Assembly: GCF_028641065.1 (NCBI RefSeq)
Contig: NC_073407.1
Coordinates: 27,838,001-27,902,000, forward strand
Origin: Leucoraja erinacea
Taxonomy: Eukaryota
DNA: 64,000 nucleotides
Direction: 5' to 3'
Below the pieces are notes generated by a model. It saw only the letters and a list, made by a program, of their open reading frames with translations. It made no database searches and was not told where the DNA came from. The position numbers and the translations under genes were made by a program. Shown here in pieces: positions 1,368-62,644 of the stretch. Position 1 is the stretch's first letter. The number at the start of each line of letters is the position of its first letter.

Positions 1368-1626
1368 GGTCATTTGTGAAGTTGGGAAAGTGGACTGGGG
1401 AAGGGAGGTTTAAAATGATAACGTACTGCTGGGTTGCAACTTGACCTGAATGTTTTTGCAAAATTATGGTCAAAATTAGGCAATTGTAAAAATGAAATCA
1501 CATAATTCATCCAGCTAATCTTCTTTGGCACAAACAGACAAGGAAATATGGCAAATGACACCACCTGTCCATAAGAATTTGGCTCGCCTATAGGCAGCAG
1601 GTTATCACTTGAAATAAAATGCCTAC

Positions 1627-4017
1627 CTTCTTCCTGGTGGAGCCACTCTTGGACAGACAAGATCTCTCCAATGACAGATACCCTCCTATCACCTGGATAT
1701 CTTCGGCAGCTGGATAGCGCTTCTTTAATAACACCTCCAGTTTAACAAATGCCGGATCAAGATCTTCAACTAGCTGCTCAGCAGTTCCATTTGTATCAAC
1801 AGGAGCCTCTTGGCCAGTGTTTGCTGGTTTTCTTTGAGGAACAACAGTAAATGTATTCCCACTCTTCCGTTGCATAAAGAGGTGTTGTGGGTCACCAAAA
1901 GATTTGTCGGAAGGTTTGTCTTTTTTTACTGTTGGTTTTGCTATGGCTGGCTGTTTAAGAATTTCTTCAGTGTCCAAAATATCATCTATATTAGTAACAG
2001 GGAGATCACCTTTTCTAATTAATGTCACACTAGTTTCGTCATTCTGCTCTGCCTCTGGCAACTCTGTAGGCAATATGCTCGAAGTTTCTTCCCCAGGTGA
2101 AAATGATGTGTGCCTGGAAGCAATGCTATAACTACCCATGAATGTAGGCTTATTAAAGTTATCCATATCAAAATCTTCGTGTGAGGGAGAAGATTCTGCA
2201 TCCGATAGCATTTCTTCTTTTCCCTGATCACAGTCAGATGGGCTACTTATTTCCTGTGAAATAGCTGAAATTATGTCTGTTTGAATCTCAGTGGGAATGG
2301 ATGCACTAATGTCAGGTTTTGGCTCTTCATCAGATTTATTGCTCGTTTCCCAAGAATCACAAACATCAAGGTATGCCACAGAGGTTTCTGCTCTTTTCTT
2401 TGGAATCACAACAAATGAGTTCTTGGATTGCTTTTTAAGATTTGCTAATGCTCTTGACTGGATATCATCTTCTGGAATGGATTCAAAATCTGGTGGAGTG
2501 GCAGGAATGATCTCAAAGGAGTTATTGAGACTAGTGGAAGCAGACACGCCATTACATTGGTTTGGAGTGACTTTGGCTGAACCTTCCACCTTATGATTCT
2601 GCTTCACTTTCCCCAAGGGAATGGCACTGGGATTCACAGATGAAGGGACATAGTAACCATCAGATACAGTGGGTGGGGGTGCGTCAGGGCATGATTTGAG
2701 AGATTTTCTTGCATCCACTTCATATTTTGGCCTCCATTTATCAGCTCCTTTAGAAACCTCCATGCTGGGTGTTTGAAGAGGAGACACCTCACCATTCGCA
2801 ACGTGACTTGCATTAGCCCGATGTTCGCCCCCCTTCACTAAGTGTACATCATTTCCCACAAAATCAACCTCAGGGTGACCATTCTCCATGACCTTATTCT
2901 CCTTATCGGCGCAATCTTTCAACGTGTTCTGGTTACTCTTGTGTGACGGAACTTTCCTAACCAGCGACTGCTTCTGCCACCCATCGGCATGCATACCTTC
3001 AAACTGCTTACGATAGGAAGACACCGAGTACGAACGATCTTCAGAAATGCTGGTATCCTGATCCTTTAAGGCAACATGGGAAAGAGAAGGCATCCGCCCA
3101 GGGGACAGTGGTGCGGAATACCTGGTGGGGGAGAAGAGCGGAGATGATTTGGGATGAGAGGGAGCCGTGCTGTCCGGGTCAGGTGATCGTGCAAACTCCG
3201 AGTGCGAGGAGCCCCAGGCTGTGGAGTGGGGGTCGGGCCGTACTGGCCCTGGGTTGTGCTTTGTAAGGACCAGAGGTTTTGGCAACAAGAGTGGCTTGCT
3301 CTGTCGTTCCTTGGCGGAGATGCCGTCCAGCAGATTCTCCGTGCTCCGCGACCGGGCAGGCTTCACATAGTTTTGGTCGAACTTCTCTAGCAGGCGGCTG
3401 ACCTTGCCGTGCAGGTGTCCAGAGCCCTCCGTGCCCAGCGTGCTCAGGTTCTCCTCGCTGCGGCTCAGCGGCGCCTCGTACACGAACACCTCTGCGGCTC
3501 GGATCTCGGCCACGCCGGCCTCGCTCAGCCGGGACGAGTCGTCGTGCCTCAGGCCGACCTCAGTGAAGTAGTCGGGGTCGGACTCGATGATGATGATGTT
3601 GTCGGCGCGGATGGTGCGCACCCCCGGGATTTGGCTGTAGAGCTCCAGGAGCTGCGGCATAGAGCGGCCGGAGCCGGGGCCGGACCCCAGACCCAGACCC
3701 GCCGGCTCCCGCTGCCGCTGCCACCGCTCCCGCTTAATGAACGGGTTCTCCTGAACGGGAGCGATGTTCTCCAGCAGCACGGCGCCGCCATCCACCTCGT
3801 CCTCACCCAGCCCCCGGCTCGGGCCTTGTGTCCAGCCGCCACCGTGAGGGGCGTGAGGGGCGCTCCCGGCCCGAGCTCGCTCCCAGCCCGGGCTCGCCTG
3901 CTTGGCCTTGCGCCGCTCCAGGATCTCCCGCTTCCAGGCCGGCATCCTCGCCACCGCCTGCGCCTCTGGGCCCGGCTCCAGGGCGCGGGGCAGCGGCCTC
4001 TGTTCACTCAGCGACAT
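1627..4017 (-). CDS. TPRN: Taperin, first coding exon (797 codons); gene continues beyond the left edge of the window
   Basis: ATG at 4017 (MSLSEQ...). Phostensin/taperin N-terminal motifs MPAWKREILERRKAK, QENPFI and IPGVRTIRADNIIIIES. Ends SCLSKSGSTRKK followed by donor GTAGGC at 1626, just before the expected KISF PP1-binding motif. Adjacent to TMEM203/NDOR1 as in human. Confidence 0.92.
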
Positions 4018-4130
4018 GCCCGCCCGACCTCCCTCACTCAGCGTTGCCGACTCGACTGTCCTCTCCCGCCCGGCCCCGGTCCTCCAGCTCCTCTCCTCCA
4101 ACGTCCCGCCGGCCAACGCACCCCGCCCTC

Positions 4131-4200
4131 GTCTCCATGGCGACCGCCATAGTCACCGGTGGGCGGGCCGGGGAGCGCTCGGCATCGCCATCTAGCGGCA
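4131..4200 (-). promoter_or_regulatory. TPRN CpG-island promoter with X-box-like (RFX) and CTCF-like motifs
   Basis: On the minus strand, GTCGCCATGGAGAC at 4131-4144 and TGCCGCTAGATGGCGA at 4185-4200. CpG-dense region about 3400-4210. Confidence 0.5.
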
Positions 4201-7056: not shown

Positions 7057-7432
7057 NNNNNNNNNNNNNNNNNNNNNNNNNNNNNNNNNNNNNNNNNNNN
7101 NNNNNNNNNNNNNNNNNNNNNNNNNNNNNNNNNNNNNNNNNNNNNNNNNNNNNNNNNNNNNNNNNNNNNNNNNNNNNNNNNNNNNNNNNNNNNNNNNNNN
7201 NNNNNNNNNNNNNNNNNNNNNNNNNNNNNNNNNNNNNNNNNNNNNNNNNNNNNNNNNNNNNNNNNNNNNNNNNNNNNNNNNNNNNNNNNNNNNNNNNNNN
7301 NNNNNNNNNNNNNNNNNNNNNNNNNNNNNNNNNNNNNNNNNNNNNNNNNNNNNNNNNNNNNNNNNNNNNNNNNNNNNNNNNNNNNNNNNNNNNNNNNNNN
7401 NNNNNNNNNNNNNNNNNNNNNNNNNNNNNNNN
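7057..7432. other. Assembly gap (376 N)
   Basis: Run of N. Confidence 0.99.
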
Positions 7433-15306: not shown

Positions 15307-15717
15307 TCAGTTCACCCGGCAGGCCCGTATCATCAACAATTGGAGGAGAATGAAGACTGGAGACATGATGAGGCCGTACCACAGGTGGGTGCTCTGCTCG
15401 ACCAGCTTTTGGCACAGCAGCATCTCAAAGACAAACTTGAGGCTGAGAACAGTCAGGATCCAGAAGAGGCGTAGGATAGCCTGCCGTTTCTCACCGTACT
15501 GGAAGAGACGGATAGACACAATCATGGTGAAGTAGGTACTCAGCCCATCTGCAGTGAAAAGCGGGATGAAGACGTACCACCAGTCCAGTTGTCCCACAAA
15601 GTTGTCCACTTTCACGGCCAGTAGCATGGAAAATACCAGGAAGGCTGCCAGATGCAGCAGCATTTCAAACGTGGCAAAGCCCAACCACTGCACCAACTCA
15701 CGCAGTGAGAACAGCAT
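15307..15717 (-). CDS. TMEM203: Transmembrane protein 203 (136 aa, uninterrupted CDS)
   Basis: MLFSLRELVQWLGFATFE...LLQLLMIRACRVN; head-to-head with NDOR1. Confidence 0.97.
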   Translation of the reverse strand: MLFSLRELVQWLGFATFEMLLHLAAFLVFSMLLAVKVDNFVGQLDWWYVFIPLFTADGLSTYFTMIVSIRLFQYGEKRQAILRLFWILTVLSLKFVFEMLLCQKLVEQSTHLWYGLIMSPVFILLQLLMIRACRVN

Positions 15718-16849
15718 TGTGGTGGCGGTGTTGCCTGGGCCCAGAGTGCCCCGAGTCAGTCAACAGTAACCAGGGCTCACATCAGTGCAGCACCAGCTCC
15801 TGGTGTCCACTTTCCATAAACAAGCTCTTCATTCATCTTCTGGAACACAACACAAACATGACATTTTAACAGCTGGCAGTCCTCCTAATAATTATATCAG
15901 ATAATAACATATTCAAAACATGTTTGTGTAGGTAGTTCTGCTAGAATCCTTGTTTCTATAACCCCAATTTGATAGAACGTGCATGATAAATTAGGGAACA
16001 CCATTTGTATTATGTCGGCCAAATTGGTAACATCATCATTGCAATCGGGAACTACAGAACTACTTAGAAGTTACTATGGAAACTGTCAAGCTGCAAAAAA
16101 AACCTTTTAGGGGAATAACCTCCTTGGAATAATTAGACATGACTGACTCTTAACAACGTAGTTGTTACATTAACTGTGGGGTTCCATTAAAATTGACACC
16201 AATCACTTCTCTTGGCACTCGTCCAATGATACTCCATTAAACTATCAATCCAGCCATCAGTATTTATAGCTTACACTAAATAAAACAAATGTATTCCTAT
16301 TAAAAAGATGTGCAATCCTTCCTCTAGCTTCACGATTCGTATCTCTTCAACCTTTTTGTTTCATATCTCTGCTCTAATCCCTGGCCTTTGTTTCAATCAC
16401 CTGCCTGTAAAAAAAACCCTTGCCTGTACTCACCTATTACTTGCCTGCCCCCCCCCCCCTTTTACAACTTTCTTCTCCCCTCCCCACCATAATCAGTCTG
16501 AAGACAGGTCCCAACCCAAAATGTCACCTTTCCCTATTCTCCAGAGATGCTGCCGAACTTGCTGAGCTACTCCAGCACTGTCTCCATTAGTACGAATCCT
16601 GGGAGGCAGATTTGCACAACAGGAACAATTGATTGGGAGGAACCGTTACTCACGGGGATTTGGAAAATTAGAGATTATATTAATGAAACATAACAACTTC
16701 AAAGAGAGATTGGCAGGGGTTCTTCTGGCTGAGGAGACCAGAAGATGGATCCACCCTCACAAACTAAGAAATCTGCTTCAGTCCCAACAACACAGTGAAT
16801 GGGCAATAGAGGTAATAGAGGTAAAGTGAATGCAATATGGGAACATTGA

Positions 16850-19363: not shown

Positions 19364-40345
<20,982 letters not shown>

Positions 40346-46924: not shown

Positions 46925-54632
<7,708 letters not shown>

Positions 54633-55102
54633 TGTTGCTCTGCCTGGACACTGGACACATACATGGCTCGCTCCCCCCTCCTGCACCCATCTTCAGCCCC
54701 CCCAGCCTGCTCCAACCAACCTCCACTCTCCCCTGCCAGGTAGTTTGTCAGACACCAGCCTTTATACCTGAACTCTAGTGTTGAACAGAGAGTGAGATTC
54801 ACAGATGTTTAGCGCCTCTCGTGTGTGGTCACATTATGTTTTTGAATGAATCAGACCAAGAGGAAATATAAAAGATTCAAGGGACTGAGTGGATGATGTT
54901 TAAAAGATTCTGTGTGTGACTGATTTTACAAAGGATGTGAGTTTATTGCAATAGACAGAATCAGGGATTGTAAAATGAGCGAATGCAAAGGTGTTGTTAA
55001 TGAATCATGTATCTAGGGCATTACTGCTCTGTATAAAACTGCAGTTGCCGCCAGTACCATCTGTGTGAAACCATGTGGACAAATGAAATGGAATCCTCTT
55101 TT

Positions 55103-55108
55103 AATAAA
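55103..55108 (+). terminator. Candidate ALAD polyadenylation signal
   Basis: AATAAA about 470 nt after the stop. Confidence 0.45.
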
Positions 55109-55883
55109 CCCAACAATGAGAAATGACATTGTCTAGGAGACATGGGAATTGTTCAGTGTTTGCAATCATTAGTCAAACTGCAGGTGTAGATTGAATATTC
55201 CTTTGGCTCGGTGGTGTCGCTTGTCCACTGTGCCAAGTGGAACACCTTTATCCTGTTTTATCAGCTGTCGTGTCATGTACCTCCAGACCAGCTGATCATG
55301 GCTCGCACAACCCTTCATATCTGTCACTCCCTCACGGTCAAAAATGCCTTACTTCCACTGTCTCTGGGTCCACAGGTGGCTGATGAGGAACCTACAGACG
55401 CAGAGGCAGTGGGACCGGGGGGGGGGGGGGGGGGGGACAGTAATCTTAGACCCCTGTGTGCAAATTGTAAGTGATTAGACTGCAAGAGATTTGTGCGTGA
55501 GTGGCCATTACCAGTCCTTCATAACTTTTGATGTTGGAGCCACTGGGCAGCAGTCATTGACTGGTCATTATGCTTCTTGGGGACAGGGATAATGGAGATA
55601 TCTTGAAGCCGACAGGGACAATAGACTGAAGGAAGACATTGAAGATGTCAGTGAAGACTGGTCATAAGTCCAGAGTCCATCTGGGCCAGCTGCTTTCTGA
55701 GTGTTTCCCCTTGTTGAGAGCAGATCTAGCGTTTGCCACACGATGCTTGGGACAGAGCCTGCGGGAGGGGGGGGGGAGGGGGGAGGGCACCATTGGGGGA
55801 CCTCTTCCTGTTCATCTTTACGTGGCCTTTATCCGCACCCAGTAGAGATGTATCGGCTTGAGCATCAACTAACCAATGAGTGG

Positions 55884-55994
55884 CCTTTTTAAAGAGCTTT
55901 TGGTTTTGAACACGTACTACCCTTCGAACATTGAAAGAAAACGAGTACAAAAAAACAGGCAAAATACACAAATTTAATCCGAGAGCAGTTAGCC
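55884..55994. repeat. Direct repeat copy A (about 111 bp; copy B at 59464-59574)
   Basis: agagcttttggttttgaacac...aatttaatccgagagcagttagcc; about 5 mismatches between the copies. Confidence 0.92.
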
Positions 55995-56172
55995 TGGTCA
56001 GGGTTGGGAACAAAATGGCAATTGACCTTCTCATCAGAAACGCCATAATTGCCATTCTCATCAATTGTCCTGATTGTCATCACACTGATTACCCACCAGG
56101 TCTGAGTCATTGTCTTTCTGGATAGGGTTATGCATAATCTCTTTCAAGAGGTCCATCTGTTTCAAAATGTTC

Positions 56173-56296
56173 TTCCTGCGTATGGCGTGCACAGCCTAAA
56201 GTTGTCGGACAACTTGTTCTATTTGATTGTGCACGCCGGGTTGATTGCATTCATCGAAACAGGGCGGACCACGTGAAGGTTGCAATCTCCCACCAC
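56173..56296. mobile_element. Short 124-bp insertion with 13-bp target-site duplication
   Basis: tttcaaaatgttc at 56160-56172 and 56297-56309. Confidence 0.75.
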
Positions 56297-56440
56297 TTTC
56301 AAAATGTTCAACTTCTCTTTCTCTAGACCCTTGGTCATACAATGGAGCTCAAAATGCTTCAAGATTGTTGATCAAATGTGGTTTGTATTTCCAAAGTTGT
56401 GACCAAAGGCTTTGCACTTTGTCCTGATCTGTAAAGATGT

Positions 56441-57275
56441 TCTTTCCTCTGTATTGATCAGCTTTACATGATGCTGCAGGTAGCGATCAACCAGAAACAC
56501 CTTGTTACCTTCTGGGTGGGGGCAAGGTCTTTCACGCACCTCTTCATGCTGCTCTTTTATATGTTTCTTAAGTCCGTCATCTCCTTTGTAAACAGCACAG
56601 CAACCCTTATACTGACATCGATACACGGTGGGGAAATCTTCCCTTTCCAAGTTTGACTTTGGTTTCCGGCCACGTTTTTGTCCAGATTGTTTCTTCACAT
56701 CCTTAATGTTGCACTTCTTAACTGGTAACTTACTCTTCTTCTTCCAATATGGTTGAAAAGACTCATCTGAAGAGCCATTCTTAACTTTTATTTCTCTGTC
56801 ATCTTCACTTGATAAATAAATACCTTTCAGAAAGATCACTGGACTCCAATTCATCCACAACATAATTTCCTATAGAACAAGTTGTTTCATTGTAGTTAAC
56901 TTTTTTTTTTCTCTCACATTTAATGGTTGAGTTCCATCTTGTACTTGAACTTTTTCCCAAGAGCAGTCTGTATATTCAGGATCTGAGCAGAAGAACATAT
57001 CCTTCTTCAATGGGGATTCTGAGTTGTCCACATCCACCGACCGCAGTGGCTCCACTGTGTGTACAAGGCTGCAAGTCTGCTAACACTGGGACGGGTTGAT
57101 GCTTCGCAACATTATCACCCTCACCATTTTCAGTCACTGTTCCATTCCGAGGTAAAGGGTTATTGAACCATCCAGAACTTCCTCCATTGAGTCCTTATTT
57201 CTACTGGATGGGCACTGTCCCTCATTCAAAACAACACTGCGACTTGAATGCATGTCCAGGATGTAACTGTGTCCC
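56441..57275 (-). pseudogene. ZNF276: ZNF276 processed pseudogene, N-proximal segment (mid-protein to second C2H2 finger)
   Basis: EREDFPTVYRCQYKGCCAVYKGDDGLKKHIKEQHEEVRERPCPHP.GNKVFLVDRYLQHHVKLINTEER matches recalled ZNF276; no introns; stops and frameshifts present. Confidence 0.82.
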
Positions 57276-57555
57276 TCTGTTATCAGAGTTTTGAACAGAC
57301 CTTCTAATTGCTAGGATTCTGCCTGATTCACCTCTACCCCATTGCAGAAATTGGACTTTGTCTCTGGAACTGGTGTGCTATAATGCTCAGAACTATGTTC
57401 TCCACAATACCCTTTCCTTTACTACCTATTTTAGGTGAGCCTGCTTGATTACATTCTTCATGTTAATCCTTTGTGTCTTGCTGGCACTGAAAAATGGAGC
57501 AAGATTCTTTAGACTTGTCATTTAGCTGTTGAATAACTATTAACTGGGTTCCTGC

Positions 57556-57878
57556 TTAATTAATGTTTCTATACTTAGCTGACGATTCAATTTCAATAGG
57601 TTTGTTTTTATCTGTATTCTGGGTCAAGGGATGAACCATCGACATATGAACATTCAAATTGTGAGCCTTCACGAACCGCTTCTCACATTGGTCACAAGCA
57701 AATTCAAGTTCAGCTTCTGCCTTCTGCTTGGTCATATGGTATTTCAAGGATCTCTTTGCCTGCACTAGAAACCACAAACTTCACACAGCAAAGGTTTTAT
57801 TCCAGTATTGCTCATTTGGTGAACTGACAGTTGTTTCCGCTGTTTGAAAGTCTGTCCACATTCATCACAAATGTAGTT
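57556..57878 (-). pseudogene. ZNF276: ZNF276 processed pseudogene, C-terminal segment (fingers 3-5)
   Basis: NYICDECGQTFKQRK...CEVCGF*CRQR/SLKYHMTK...FACDQCEKRFVKAHNLNVHMSMVHPLTQ; TAG at 57765 and a frameshift. Confidence 0.85.
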
Positions 57879-58473
57879 TATTTTCACAAATCGAATCCTT
57901 CTTTCTCCCAAGTTGTCCCTCAGCGTGTGAAACCAGCATTCTTCTTCCTTCTCCATCAATGCCAACTGGCTGTCTGATCCATCCCAACTCAGCTCCTCAC
58001 TTTGATCTCAGCTGGGATTTATCTCAATCCAGTTCTGTAACTGAGTTGCACTCAAAACTCAAGGCTTTAAAAACTCCACAACCTGATTACTCTCCTTCAG
58101 CTGCTGTGTGATGGAAGTGAGATGGTCATTTTCAGACTGGGCATTGGTGAGCACATTTCTCATCTGTTTCAGCACTGTCTGTAGCTCCGGAATAAGCTGC
58201 CACCTTTTTCTGGCTACTTCAAGAACCTGTGGTAATGGATCCATCTTGGTCAGTGTTATAAACGTAAGGACAGTTGTCAGCCTTATTCAGGACGTCTTGG
58301 TGCAGGGGTGTTTCCCCAAGTCCAGCTCATCTTGGCCAACCTCAGGATAAAAAGTAGGGTCAATAGCCCCATTGTCCTTTCTTGGTTCTCCATTTACAGT
58401 CAATCGTATCAGATGTCTTCAACGGGAGTAAGCTTCAATCTTCAATCGTGGTTGGTGTCGTAGTAGCACCTGG

Positions 58474-59155
58474 TACTATCTAAATGGCGTCAAGTTGGGA
58501 AAAGGAGAAGTACAATGGGATCTGGGGGTCCTTGTACATCAGTCTATGAAAGTAAGCTTGCAGGTACAGCAGGCAGTGAAGAAAGCGAATGGCATGTTGG
58601 CATTTATAACAAGAGGAATCGAATATAGGAGCAAAGAGGTCCTTCTGCAGTTGTACAGAGCCCTAGTGAGACCACATCTGGAGTATTGTGTGCAGTTTTG
58701 GTCCCCTAATTTGAGGAAGGACATTCTTGCTATTGAGGGAGTGCAGCGTAGGTTTACAAGGTTAATTCCCAGGATGGCGGGACTGTCATATGCTGAGAGA
58801 ATGGAGCAGCTGGGCTTGTACACTCTAGAGTTTAGAAGGATGAGAGGGGATCTCATTGAAACATATAAGATTGTTAAGGGCTTGGACACACTAGAGGCAG
58901 GAAACATGTTCCCGATGGTGGGGAGTCCAGAACCAGGGGCCACAGTTTAAGAATAAGGGGTAAGCCATTTAGAACGGAGATGAGGAAACACTTTTTCTCA
59001 CAGAGAGTTGTGAGTCTGTGGAATTCTCTGCCGCAGAGGGCAGTGGAGGCAGGTTCTCTGGATGCTTTCAAGAGAGAGCTAGATAGGGCTCTTAAAAATA
59101 GCGGAGTCAGGGGACATGGGGAGAAGGCAGGAACAGGGTACTGATTGGGGATGAA
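58474..59155 (+). mobile_element. CR1 LINE 3' fragment
   Basis: DLGVLVHQSMKVS..KKANGMLAFITRGIEYRSKEVLLQLYRALVRPHLEYCVQFWSP. Confidence 0.88.
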
Positions 59156-59159
59156 TAGG

Positions 59160-59666
59160 AAAAAAAATTAAAGTTAAGAGAAAACAAAGAATAAACAATT
59201 AATTTTCAAGCTCATTCAATGGCATCCTATTTCATCTGACAAGAGGCATATATATATAAATATAGCCTGGGACTGCATCCCATATCTGTCAAGTATCCCG
59301 ATAGGCTTTGGGAGAAATTAAACAGACAGCAAAATCCTGAACACAGGAAAATCAAGCTGCTAGTATCTTGGTAGCATAGCCGTGAAAAGAACACGGAGCA
59401 CTCTAGTTAGATAAGAAACAGAACACTTGGATGAGTGACAACTTGAAAGAACCTTTTAAAATACCTTTTTGGAGAGCTTTTGGTTTTGAACACATACTAC
59501 CCTTCGAACATTGAAGGAAAACAAGTACAAAAAAACAGGCAAAATACACAAATTTAATCCGAGAGCAGTTAGCCAAAGTCGCGTAGCCCCCCTCGTTTCC
59601 AAACAAAAATCGTGCAAAACATTAGAGATGTCTCTCTATTAATCTTACATTCCCCTCCCTTCTCTG
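59160..59666 (-). mobile_element. Candidate LTR with upstream polypurine tract
   Basis: Minus strand AGAGAAGGGAGGGGAA|TGTAAG (LTR would start at 59649); contains direct repeat copy B; distal end undefined. Confidence 0.45.
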
Positions 59667-61359
59667 ACAAAAGCCGTTCTGTTTAAAAGAATCTTTGTTT
59701 CTATGGGAACCAACTTGCAGAATTACCACGCTAGGAAATTCCCCTGGCAGATTTTGTGAACTAGCACTTGGAGGTTTGCAAAAGTCATCGCCTTTGTTGG
59801 AGTGAGAATTTAAAATGAACAAAGGGAGTAGTTTAATGTAATGGTGGGCGGGTTAATGTTCAAACTGGGAGTGGTCTGAGTTGTGATTGGAAGTCTACGC
59901 CAAATGTAAAAGGCGGATATCAACAAAAACTGTTAAAGGTAAAACCATGGCAATCTTTAATTGATCAGACGGGAGTGGCAATAGATCTACAATGACCACA
60001 AATGTTGTTTAGTGCTTCTCGGGCTCCCACTCTCAGAACAAAGGCGAGTTAGCACAGTTATACATTTTTCTTATCAGTAAAACATTCCTACCAAGTCTGA
60101 ATATGGCATGACTGAAAGATTCTGTAGCCTTTCACAATATAGGAAAGCTGGGTCCAAATCAAGCTTATCCAATAATAAGTTATTACTTATCTCTGGAGTG
60201 TCAGCTATTTTTTTCAATCTTAGCTTCTTTATGGCCTTGAATGAAGCACATGTTATTACTGTAGACTGCCATCTTAATGTCTTTATTGAAAAGACAACCT
60301 GTCCTCCATATTGTGTTCCATATAATTTACAATGTTATTCAGACTTGGCACCGAGCCTTTCTTTTCTACTAGTCCATACTTTTGTAGAACAACTCCATTT
60401 CAGATTTGACTATTAGATCTTTCATTAGTACCCATTAATAAATGCCTTTAACTAGATAGATGAATACAGGAGGGAGAAATGAAAACAATATATTGGTGGC
60501 AGCAGGCACAGCTGGAATGTATTGCTATATCAGTCGTATCGAAGCCTGTACATTCCATTTGATTATGATGTACAATTGGAATGTACGGTAGCAACTACCG
60601 TAGCAACTTTGTGTTGGTGGACATTTCCCCAAGGTATCGGAATAGTTCCCCAATCCTGAAAGGATGTTCTGAATCACTTGAATGAACGTTTTAATTAATC
60701 CCAGACAGGCAATGTGAAAAAATGCACCACTTCATCAAGAGGTGCTAAGTTTGCCAGCTGTACTGTCATACAATTCAATTCAATTCAATTCAACTTTAAT
60801 GTCACAATGGGGACGGAGGGGCCGGAGAAATCTATCGGCGGGACTCCGAGTTCAGCAATGTAATTGTATTATTGTAGAAGCTGTTCCTCATCCTACTAGT
60901 ACGTGACCTGAGGCTCCTGTACCGCCTCCCTGATAGGAGGAGGGCAAACAGTCCATGGTTGGGGTGTGAGGGGTCTTTGATGATCTTCCCAGCCCGTCTC
61001 AGACACCGATGGAGACCAGATGGTTGATGGTTGATATAATGCTGTTTTGCTAAAAAAATACCTAAATTGATGTCAATCCATGAGCAAAAAGATGGCTCGT
61101 TATTTCACTCTGATCGCGATGCACATTACATTTCAGTTCTATGTTTCATAGAGAAACAAAGAACTGCAGGTGTGTGTTCATACACAAAAAGACAAAGTGC
61201 TGGAGTAACTCAGCGGGACAGGCAGCATCTCTGGAGAGAAGGAATGGGTGACGTTATGGTCGAGACCCTTCTTCAGACGGAGAGGGCAGGAGAGAGATAG
61301 ACGGTGATGGAGGTGGTGTTTGTGGTGGACAGAGCCATGCTGTGCCTGTGAGAGGAGCC

Positions 61360-61719
61360 AGTGCCCAGGGCGCGCTCCCGCGGGGGCGGACCCTGGCCCA
61401 GGGCGCGCTCCCGCCGCTGCCGCGCGCATTGTTTGAAGGCGCGGCGGTTGCCGGGCGCTGTGTGACGCCGTCCGGCGCTGTGTGACGTCACAGGGCGCAG
61501 TGTGACGCGACTGCGCATGCCCGTCGCCAGGCAACGCCCACTCAAACGCAAGCAACGCCCAGTGCCGGCGCACCGACCAATGGCGAGGCGCTGTGGATGA
61601 GTGGCAGCGCGGCGGGCCAATAGCGATGTGTCGGCGGTGACGCGGGATGATATAACCGGCACGGCGGGCGTTGGGCGCTCATTGCGCGACCGCTCGCTGC
61701 CCGCTCTACTTGCCTCGCC
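61360..61719 (+). promoter_or_regulatory. Beta-tubulin CpG-island promoter
   Basis: TTTGAA at 61432, CRE TGACGTCA at 61483-61490, X-box GTCGCCAGGCAAC at 61523-61535, CCAAT at 61577 and 61617, TATAA at 61651. Confidence 0.7.
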
Positions 61720-61776
61720 ATGCGGGAGATCGTGCACCTGCAGGCCGGCCAATGCGGCAACCAGATCGGGGCCAAG
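61720..61776 (+). CDS. TUBB4B: Beta-tubulin exon 1 (probably TUBB4B); the rest lies beyond the window
   Basis: gccATG MREIVHLQAGQCGNQIGAK|gtgtgt, the canonical 57-nt first exon. Paralogue assigned from VHLQ and synteny with NDOR1/TPRN. Confidence 0.85.
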
Positions 61777-62644
61777 GTGTGTAGCCCAGGCCGCCTCAGC
61801 CTTAGCAGCACTACAGCACATGGTGGAGGGGGGAGGGAGGAGATAATGGGCGCGACACCCCGCTGTGAGGCGGGCCCGCGCCGGCCCCCAGACCGTTAGG
61901 CGCGGGGCCCCAGCCTGTTCTCGCCGCCGACGCCGCCAGGCATTTGAAAAGGCGGCGAGTGCTTAGGCACGGCCCCAATCCCGGGATGGGCTTGTCTTGG
62001 CGGCGGTCGGGGGGTTAAGGCGGCGTCCCCGCCCCCGTCCCCGTCCCCGCCGGCTGAGGGTCTCCTCTGGGGCCAGCAACAGGCGGCTGACAACTCGCGG
62101 CATTCACTGGGACCGAAGATAAACACAATAAGCTGGAGGAACTCAGCAGGACAGGCAGCATATCGCATATAACATCGTTTCGGGTCGAGACCCTTCAGAC
62201 TGAAAGTCACGGGAAAGGGATACGAGAGATATAGACGATGATGTAGAGAGATAGCGAACAATGAATGAAAGATGCATTAGTGACTGGGACCATTGTCCCA
62301 CTCCTTACAGTGGGGCATCGTTTACACTTCAAATAGTATTTAACTACCGTGGGAAAAACCTACCGGTTATCGTGCTTAGGCACCTCTATCATCAGCAACC
62401 TATCCCGGTCCCATCACGCTAAGTAGTAGGTTGCATTTATAAAGAAGCCCAAGATTTTGAAAGCGTTTAACAGGTGTATGAGCATATCAAACGTTGTCAC
62501 TAAACCTCTGCGAAAGGTAGCCGTCGGACATAATCAGAGCATTGTAGGTCTTGATGTGCACTTGTGTTGACTCGGTGCTATCTCATCACGTTTCCCTGCC
62601 CCAGTCCAGCCAATCCAACCTCAGGCACAGACACATACCCCACA

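Follow-up and report, generated by a model that had tools for sequence, protein, structure and literature searches.

Ordinary processed pseudogenes made by LINEs are collinear with their mRNA, end in a 3' poly(A) tract, and carry a target-site duplication of their own. LTR-mediated retrocopies include multi-gene chimeras such as the mouse "Super" retrocopy and maize Bs1 (Tan et al. 2016, PMC5131818); the word "circular" is absent from the main text of that paper. Pseudogenes derived from circular RNAs (circRNAs) have been described for the circRFWD2 family and for a vtRNA read-through case (Dong et al. 2016, PMC4897178, accessible text). Duplications that pass through circular DNA have also been described, in a report whose accessible text cites cattle translocations (PMC7450558). 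In cartilaginous fishes, ZNF276 is listed among the five most retrocopied genes, and the accessible part of that preprint reads such lists as a bias in formation followed by selective filtering (bioRxiv 10.64898/2026.06.26.734816).

Here we describe a ZNF276 copy from the little skate, Leucoraja erinacea, in a 64-kb window (the whole stretch of DNA that was analyzed). The C-terminal part of this copy stands ahead of its middle part, and the copy lies within a mosaic of other mRNA pieces. The literature, in which subscription papers and supplements were thinly covered, gave no account of this element or of any chimeric retrocopy with permuted cargo. Like a LINE-made processed pseudogene, the copy is intron-less, decayed, and away from its parent; unlike one, it is not collinear, has no poly(A) and no target-site duplication of its own, and has junctions that are common to several copies.

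The likeness to LTR-mediated retrocopies, as characterized in the main text of PMC5131818, extends to partial mRNAs from several parents, replacement of part of a template, a lack of poly(A), and amplification. The mosaic joins ZNF276, Bicaudal-D, and thrombospondin and has amplified sisters, as that class allows. Short homology occurs at the switch points of those retrocopies, and here 6 to 8 bases are repeated at the outer junctions. Unlike that class as described there, the skate mosaic yielded no LTRs or remnants of LTR elements, one of its cargoes is circularly permuted, and cargo is nested in cargo. Without LTRs, it cannot be filed as an LTR-type template-switch chimera, although it works like one.

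As in the circRNA-derived pseudogenes of PMC4897178, a spliced copy is non-colinear, lacks poly(A), and exists in many copies. In the cases given in that source the join runs from an exon end to an exon start, whereas here a repeat that lies beyond the stop codon is joined to a point in mid-exon. The duplications of PMC7450558, as far as its accessible text goes, resemble this locus in flipped order, in distinct closing and opening points, and in junction microhomology with a 1-base loss. They differ in that their donor is a large genomic segment, whereas the donor here is a spliced mRNA of about 1.8 kb and the target is a repeated mosaic of mRNA pieces.

The permuted copy and the mosaic around it

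The features of the region, in the order in which the minus strand reads them, are as follows.

59464-59574, unstranded: 111-nt direct repeat, copy 1 (5 differences between the copies)
58474-59154, plus strand: 3' part of a very high-copy LINE, inserted later (depth about 1e7, which is not a copy number; loose ends at 58474 and 59154)
58300-58473, minus strand: multi-copy stretch, parent unnamed, starting with the acceptor-like end of a pyrimidine tract
58240-58299, minus strand: thrombospondin type-3 repeat fragment a (2rhp_A 256-275, E 0.04, weak alone)
58065-58199, minus strand: Bicaudal-D (BICD2-like) coding fragment of 45 aa (Pfam BicD, E 2.5e-9)
57879-58064, minus strand: left flank, common to sister copies, in which the 133-aa ORFs of the sisters have their ATG
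57543-57878, minus strand: ZNF276 C-terminal piece, aa 519-631, with the last three zinc fingers (1 stop, 2 frameshifts)
57408-57542, minus strand: stop codon and probable ZNF276 3' UTR, at low-copy depth
57278-57407, unstranded: fragment of a high-copy repeat, located at the inner join and recognized by depth, with edges to bin resolution and last codons common to sister P0133
56441-57277, minus strand: middle piece of ZNF276, covering aa 242-518 with 4 frameshifts (aa ~106-241, kept in a sister, are missing)
56139-56440, minus strand: right flank, common to sister copies, from a contig and sister comparison
56173-56296, unstranded: later high-copy insert of 124 nt between 13-nt direct repeats (56160-56172 and 56297-56309), absent from P0121
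56067-56138, minus strand: thrombospondin fragment b, resuming 14 aa after fragment a (2rhp_A 290-316; sisters P0121 and P0127)
55994-56065, minus strand: thrombospondin fragment c (1ux6_A 77-100), separated from fragment b by a 32-aa gap that is common to both sisters
55884-55994, unstranded: 111-nt direct repeat, copy 2, truncating the thrombospondin reading that the sisters continue

In a frameshift-aware alignment to ZNF276 of Amblyraja radiata (P0002, 631 aa), aa 519-631 (57878-57543) precede aa 242-518 (57277-56441) on the minus strand. An earlier reading made from the sequence alone had placed the C-terminal piece ahead of an N-proximal piece with almost nothing lost at the opening; its coordinates and order hold in the alignment, and 0 residues are gone at the opening between residues 518 and 519. 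Identity to the reference is 91% (103/113) for the C-terminal piece and 89% (249/281 columns) for the middle piece, with tblastn E values of 9e-121 and 6e-30 for the two pieces. The closest proteins to 56441-56860 are the skate ZNF276 proteins (Amblyraja and Leucoraja, 94%). With six frameshifts and one stop in total, the copy in the window is dead. The window's own genes, one taperin-like and one TMEM203-like, show that this locus differs from the parent locus of ZNF276.

Exon edges of ZNF276 were placed at 184/185, ~364/365, 516, and 549 from isoforms and from ORFs that read through introns, that is, from proteins and not from the gene. The copy crosses the three supported edges (~364/365, 516, and 549) with no intron at any of them, in agreement with the intron-less pieces that had been reported from the sequence. 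The opening point lies 8 bases into the exon that begins in codon 516, so the permutation is no exon swap, and aa 242 falls within exon 184-364, which ZNF276 isoform X2 skips. Mapped against these edges, no junction falls at an exon edge, which speaks against the back-spliced circRNA that had been listed among the possible sources of the copy.

Both outer junctions carry AAC, as the sequence-only reading had noticed, and the true overlap is longer: 6 shared bases, or 8 with one gap, with one A lost on the right. The residue preceding Asn519 is Arg in two sister ORFs and Ile in the window. Since the sisters have Arg518 to the left of Asn519, each side of the junction has a version of codon 518.

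At the inner join, the summed depth in run X1 is 200,577 (57274-57407) against 340-1,000 in neighboring bins, summed depth not being a copy number. We take this repeat (57278-57407) to be the 3' part of a LINE in antisense. It had no Pfam match in three frames, no second copy within the 64-kb window, and 0 matches to its 21-base motif in metagenome and viral contigs. The LINE fragment that had been placed at 57275-57440 is thus borne out as a high-copy repeat at the inner join and corrected in extent, since it ends by 57407 and not at 57440. The candidate identity of 57275-57440 as 3' UTR alone was ruled out by read depth. The low-copy stretch of 135 bases that precedes the repeat on the minus strand (57408-57542) contains no AATAAA or ATTAAA and no poly(A) tract, its longest A run being 4. 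In the window copy, aa ~106-241 are missing between two Glu-Gly codon pairs. Because a sister keeps these residues, the inner join as it stands in the window is a later deletion.

The ZNF276 copy is flanked not by anonymous genomic DNA but by pieces of other mRNAs, including Bicaudal-D and thrombospondin, which together form a mosaic on one strand. The pieces are nested: thrombospondin encloses Bicaudal-D and unnamed sequence, which in turn encloses ZNF276. Thrombospondin is thereby left and rejoined around ~2.1 kb of other cargo, with 14 aa skipped. Sisters P0121 and P0127 have the same downstream thrombospondin junction and gap and match TSP_3 at 1e-12 and 1e-9, respectively, the window's own PDB matches being weak alone. 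The 111-nt direct repeats bracket the whole mosaic, which is interrupted by two later retroposon insertions (56173-56296 and 58474-59154), the second of them presumably CR1-like. A pyrimidine tract (59155-59195, minus strand) and a CAG (58470-58473, minus strand) resemble a 3' splice site that was split by this LINE insert.

Outside the 111-nt repeats, 59575-59800 and 55800-55883 are likewise covered in runs X1 and X2, and a contig of run X2 links repeat copy 2 to the downstream flank, differing at 3 of 184 bases. This cover indicates either that the unit ends further out or that the locus is shared. No LTR pair surrounds the mosaic, only the 111-nt direct repeat. Families of gag, pol, integrase, and transposase were absent from six frames of 54500-56440, 57879-58527, and 59150-61400 and from 42 of the window's 115 long ORFs. 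A gag-like reading of the flanks was dropped for lack of Pfam support. A representative search with the flanks returned seven matches, three of them skate-like sisters or repeat copies and four unrelated or generic. There were 0 PDB matches for three frames of 59575-60503, and the ESM Atlas gave no usable match for the left flank. A 16-base purine tract followed by TG (59650-59665, minus strand) resembles a retroviral polypurine tract before an LTR; the motif at 59665 is 1 of 15 on the minus strand, and depth there is not above that of the interior.

Sister copies and their junctions

The mosaic has sister copies in several skate genomes. Parts of the stretch are present in 20 of the 21 listed runs, none of which contains half or more of it, and the DNA-type runs of organisms A-F contain 0.34-0.48 of the stretch. 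Among the four runs compared, the DNA runs X1 and X2 cover 30 of 30 bins, with at most 25 variant contigs per site; X15 and X18 are presumed to be RNA runs. The joints tabulated from the contigs are dominated by the LINE. An outer junction is bridged by at least 31 letters in at least three pieces among the 32 listed (165,422 others), and the window's inner join is bridged by 0 of the same 32 (165,422 others). The left junction is represented by three sister proteins (P0128, P0134, and P0133) and one contig (X15 record 14), and the right junction by two contigs (X15 record 10 and X2 record 26). A junction search gave five proteins, of which one, P0128, spans the junction, and a second, P0134, belongs to the cluster of P0128.

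From a search for short proteins, 1 of 13 candidates was returned, the little-skate protein P0133 (XP_055501298.1). It reads from the left flank into aa 519-535, the end of the repeat, and ZNF276 aa ~106-280; metagenome contigs gave no confirmed relative. P0133 is a predicted gene model, which skips part of the locus and stops short of the right junction; as such a model, it fixes the permuted ZNF276 order in the little-skate assembly. In that species, three different contigs carry the full-length ZNF276 gene model (P0003; 43.8 Mb), P0133 (55.8 Mb), and P0127, the thrombospondin sister (113.5 Mb).

The window's His534Gln and aa-619 frameshift recur in P0128 and P0134, a sign that a single capture was copied afterwards. 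Both have an open chimeric frame of 133 aa with three C2H2 fingers, and P0134 is identical to the parent part at 100 of 102 residues. Five of the window's six frameshifts do not occur in other contigs. Since the outer junctions are common to dispersed sisters, the event that made them predates the insertion at the window locus.

Proposed template switching and other possible origins of the permuted order

The explanation that we prefer, and to which we give about an even chance, is that a reverse transcriptase of a retroelement, switching templates at short homologies, read ZNF276 as a loop and added it to a multi-gene passenger mosaic, which was then amplified. An enzyme on a carrier RNA would have switched to the ZNF276 mRNA at codons 518-519 and moved upstream along it as far as about codon 106. 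A second jump would have taken it from there to the repeat downstream of the ZNF276 stop codon, and it would then have run back up to codon 519. It would have gone back to the carrier at the 6 to 8 shared bases of its entry, which presumes that the flanks originally adjoined each other, and its exit was perhaps forced, the template having already been cut by RNase H at the first entry point. By analogy with retroviral copy-choice, a template cut by RNase H would force such an exit without a closed circle. The template would have been read as a loop, and a linear mRNA with switching would yield the same product as a closed circle, which makes the closed circle of the sequence-only reading dispensable as an intermediate. 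The mosaic likely spread afterwards as a non-autonomous unit, or it may have spread by DNA-level or segmental duplication. Later changes confined to the window copy would be the disappearance of aa ~106-241, all but one of the six frameshifts, and one or more retroposon insertions.

Entry and exit at the same point, the short overlap, and the equal decay of the two pieces argue for one event with circular topology. The earlier proposal that a circle was opened and inserted here thus stands as to the single event and its topology and falls as to the place, the outer junctions being common to sisters. We favor template switching on account of the target, which is likewise a nest of spliced pieces on one strand, with an outer template that was left and rejoined at the cost of a small loss. 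Leaving and returning, multi-gene chimeras, and re-amplification are described for template-switch captures in the main text of Tan et al. (2016, PMC5131818), and Dong et al. (2016, PMC4897178) remark that reverse transcription may yield non-colinear joins with no closed circle and describe one such pseudogene from an unclosed RNA. Against this reading, three genes would lie on one strand by chance in 1 of 4 cases, and three jumps are needed, against a single closure and a single crossover for a circle. The lack of an LTR pair or a carrier gene also counts against it.

A DNA circle, whether a circularized cDNA or an eccDNA from an older retrocopy, is the main rival, a possibility that we hold more tentatively. 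Closed from the repeat to about codon 106, it would have crossed into the ancestral mosaic at the 6 to 8 bases and duplicated them, and the mosaic would then have spread; this is the mechanism of the sequence-only reading shifted to an ancestor. It takes the fewest steps and accounts both for the identity of entry and exit and for the overlap at both ends, and the same flip, with microhomologies alone, is found in the human duplications via circular DNA (PMC7450558, accessible text). However, it leaves the nested, spliced, same-strand target with its leave-and-return signature unexplained, the poly(A) scar that an older retrocopy would leave is missing ahead of the repeat, and the published cases are genomic segments. 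A genomic segment as donor is contradicted by the lack of introns at three exon edges; an older retrocopy may still have served as one. A retroposed circRNA, back-spliced through cryptic splice sites, is improbable. It would account for a non-colinear join without poly(A) in a multi-copy family, as in the circRFWD2 pseudogenes (PMC4897178, accessible text), and Gln105, whose codon could end in AG, precedes the join of the sister. However, aa 242 and aa ~106 both lie off the isoform-supported edges (edges taken from proteins): aa 242 is inside the exon that isoform X2 skips, and no isoform among 119 proteins shows an edge at 105/106, with alignment starts clustering at 59-63. On its donor side, the join has a repeat located beyond the stop codon.

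We consider it very improbable that ZNF276 was captured twice, in separate events, or that a head-to-tail dimer lost both of its ends. Serial captures do occur here, as the mosaic shows, but by our own estimate independent ends would meet within 6 bases over ~1.8 kb in less than 1 in 100 cases, and decay is equal in the two pieces. Two independent insertions had been named as the reading that would overturn the sequence-only one; the pieces meet at 518|519 with a short overlap, as expected of one event and not two. Misassembly, the other such reading, has next to no probability. The window does contain a run of N and much low-complexity sequence, and its inner join is unbridged among the contigs listed, but both outer junctions are bridged by contigs of independent runs from two other studies, and the predicted little-skate gene model has the same permuted order.

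If template switching is the right reading, one natural record unites multi-gene template-switch retrocopies with permuted copies, and a permuted retrocopy need not derive from a back-spliced circRNA. Amplification of one capture may explain the rank of ZNF276 among retrocopied genes; if most ZNF276 copies share the 518|519 opening, one capture has been multiplied, which offers a direct test of the published count. Tentatively, we suggest that skates carry an undescribed non-autonomous family of nested host mRNA pieces, one of them looped without back-splicing, that amplification, rather than repeated retroposition or selection, lies behind the rank of ZNF276, and that copies keeping the open 133-codon frame with three fingers could encode a new protein.

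Elsewhere in the window, an open frame of 854 codons (1588-4152, minus strand) matches both Phostensin families and belongs to the taperin-like gene, and a single frame at 15307-15759 (minus strand), TMEM203-like, matches Tmemb_185A. An assembly gap of 376 N occupies 7057-7432. Tandem arrays consist of a 10-mer repeated 167 times (22519-24189) and a 66-mer repeated 9.8 times (30104-30750). On the minus strand, a GC-rich, CpG-island-like stretch (61300-62100) precedes the mosaic by about 1.7 kb and could drive read-through into it.
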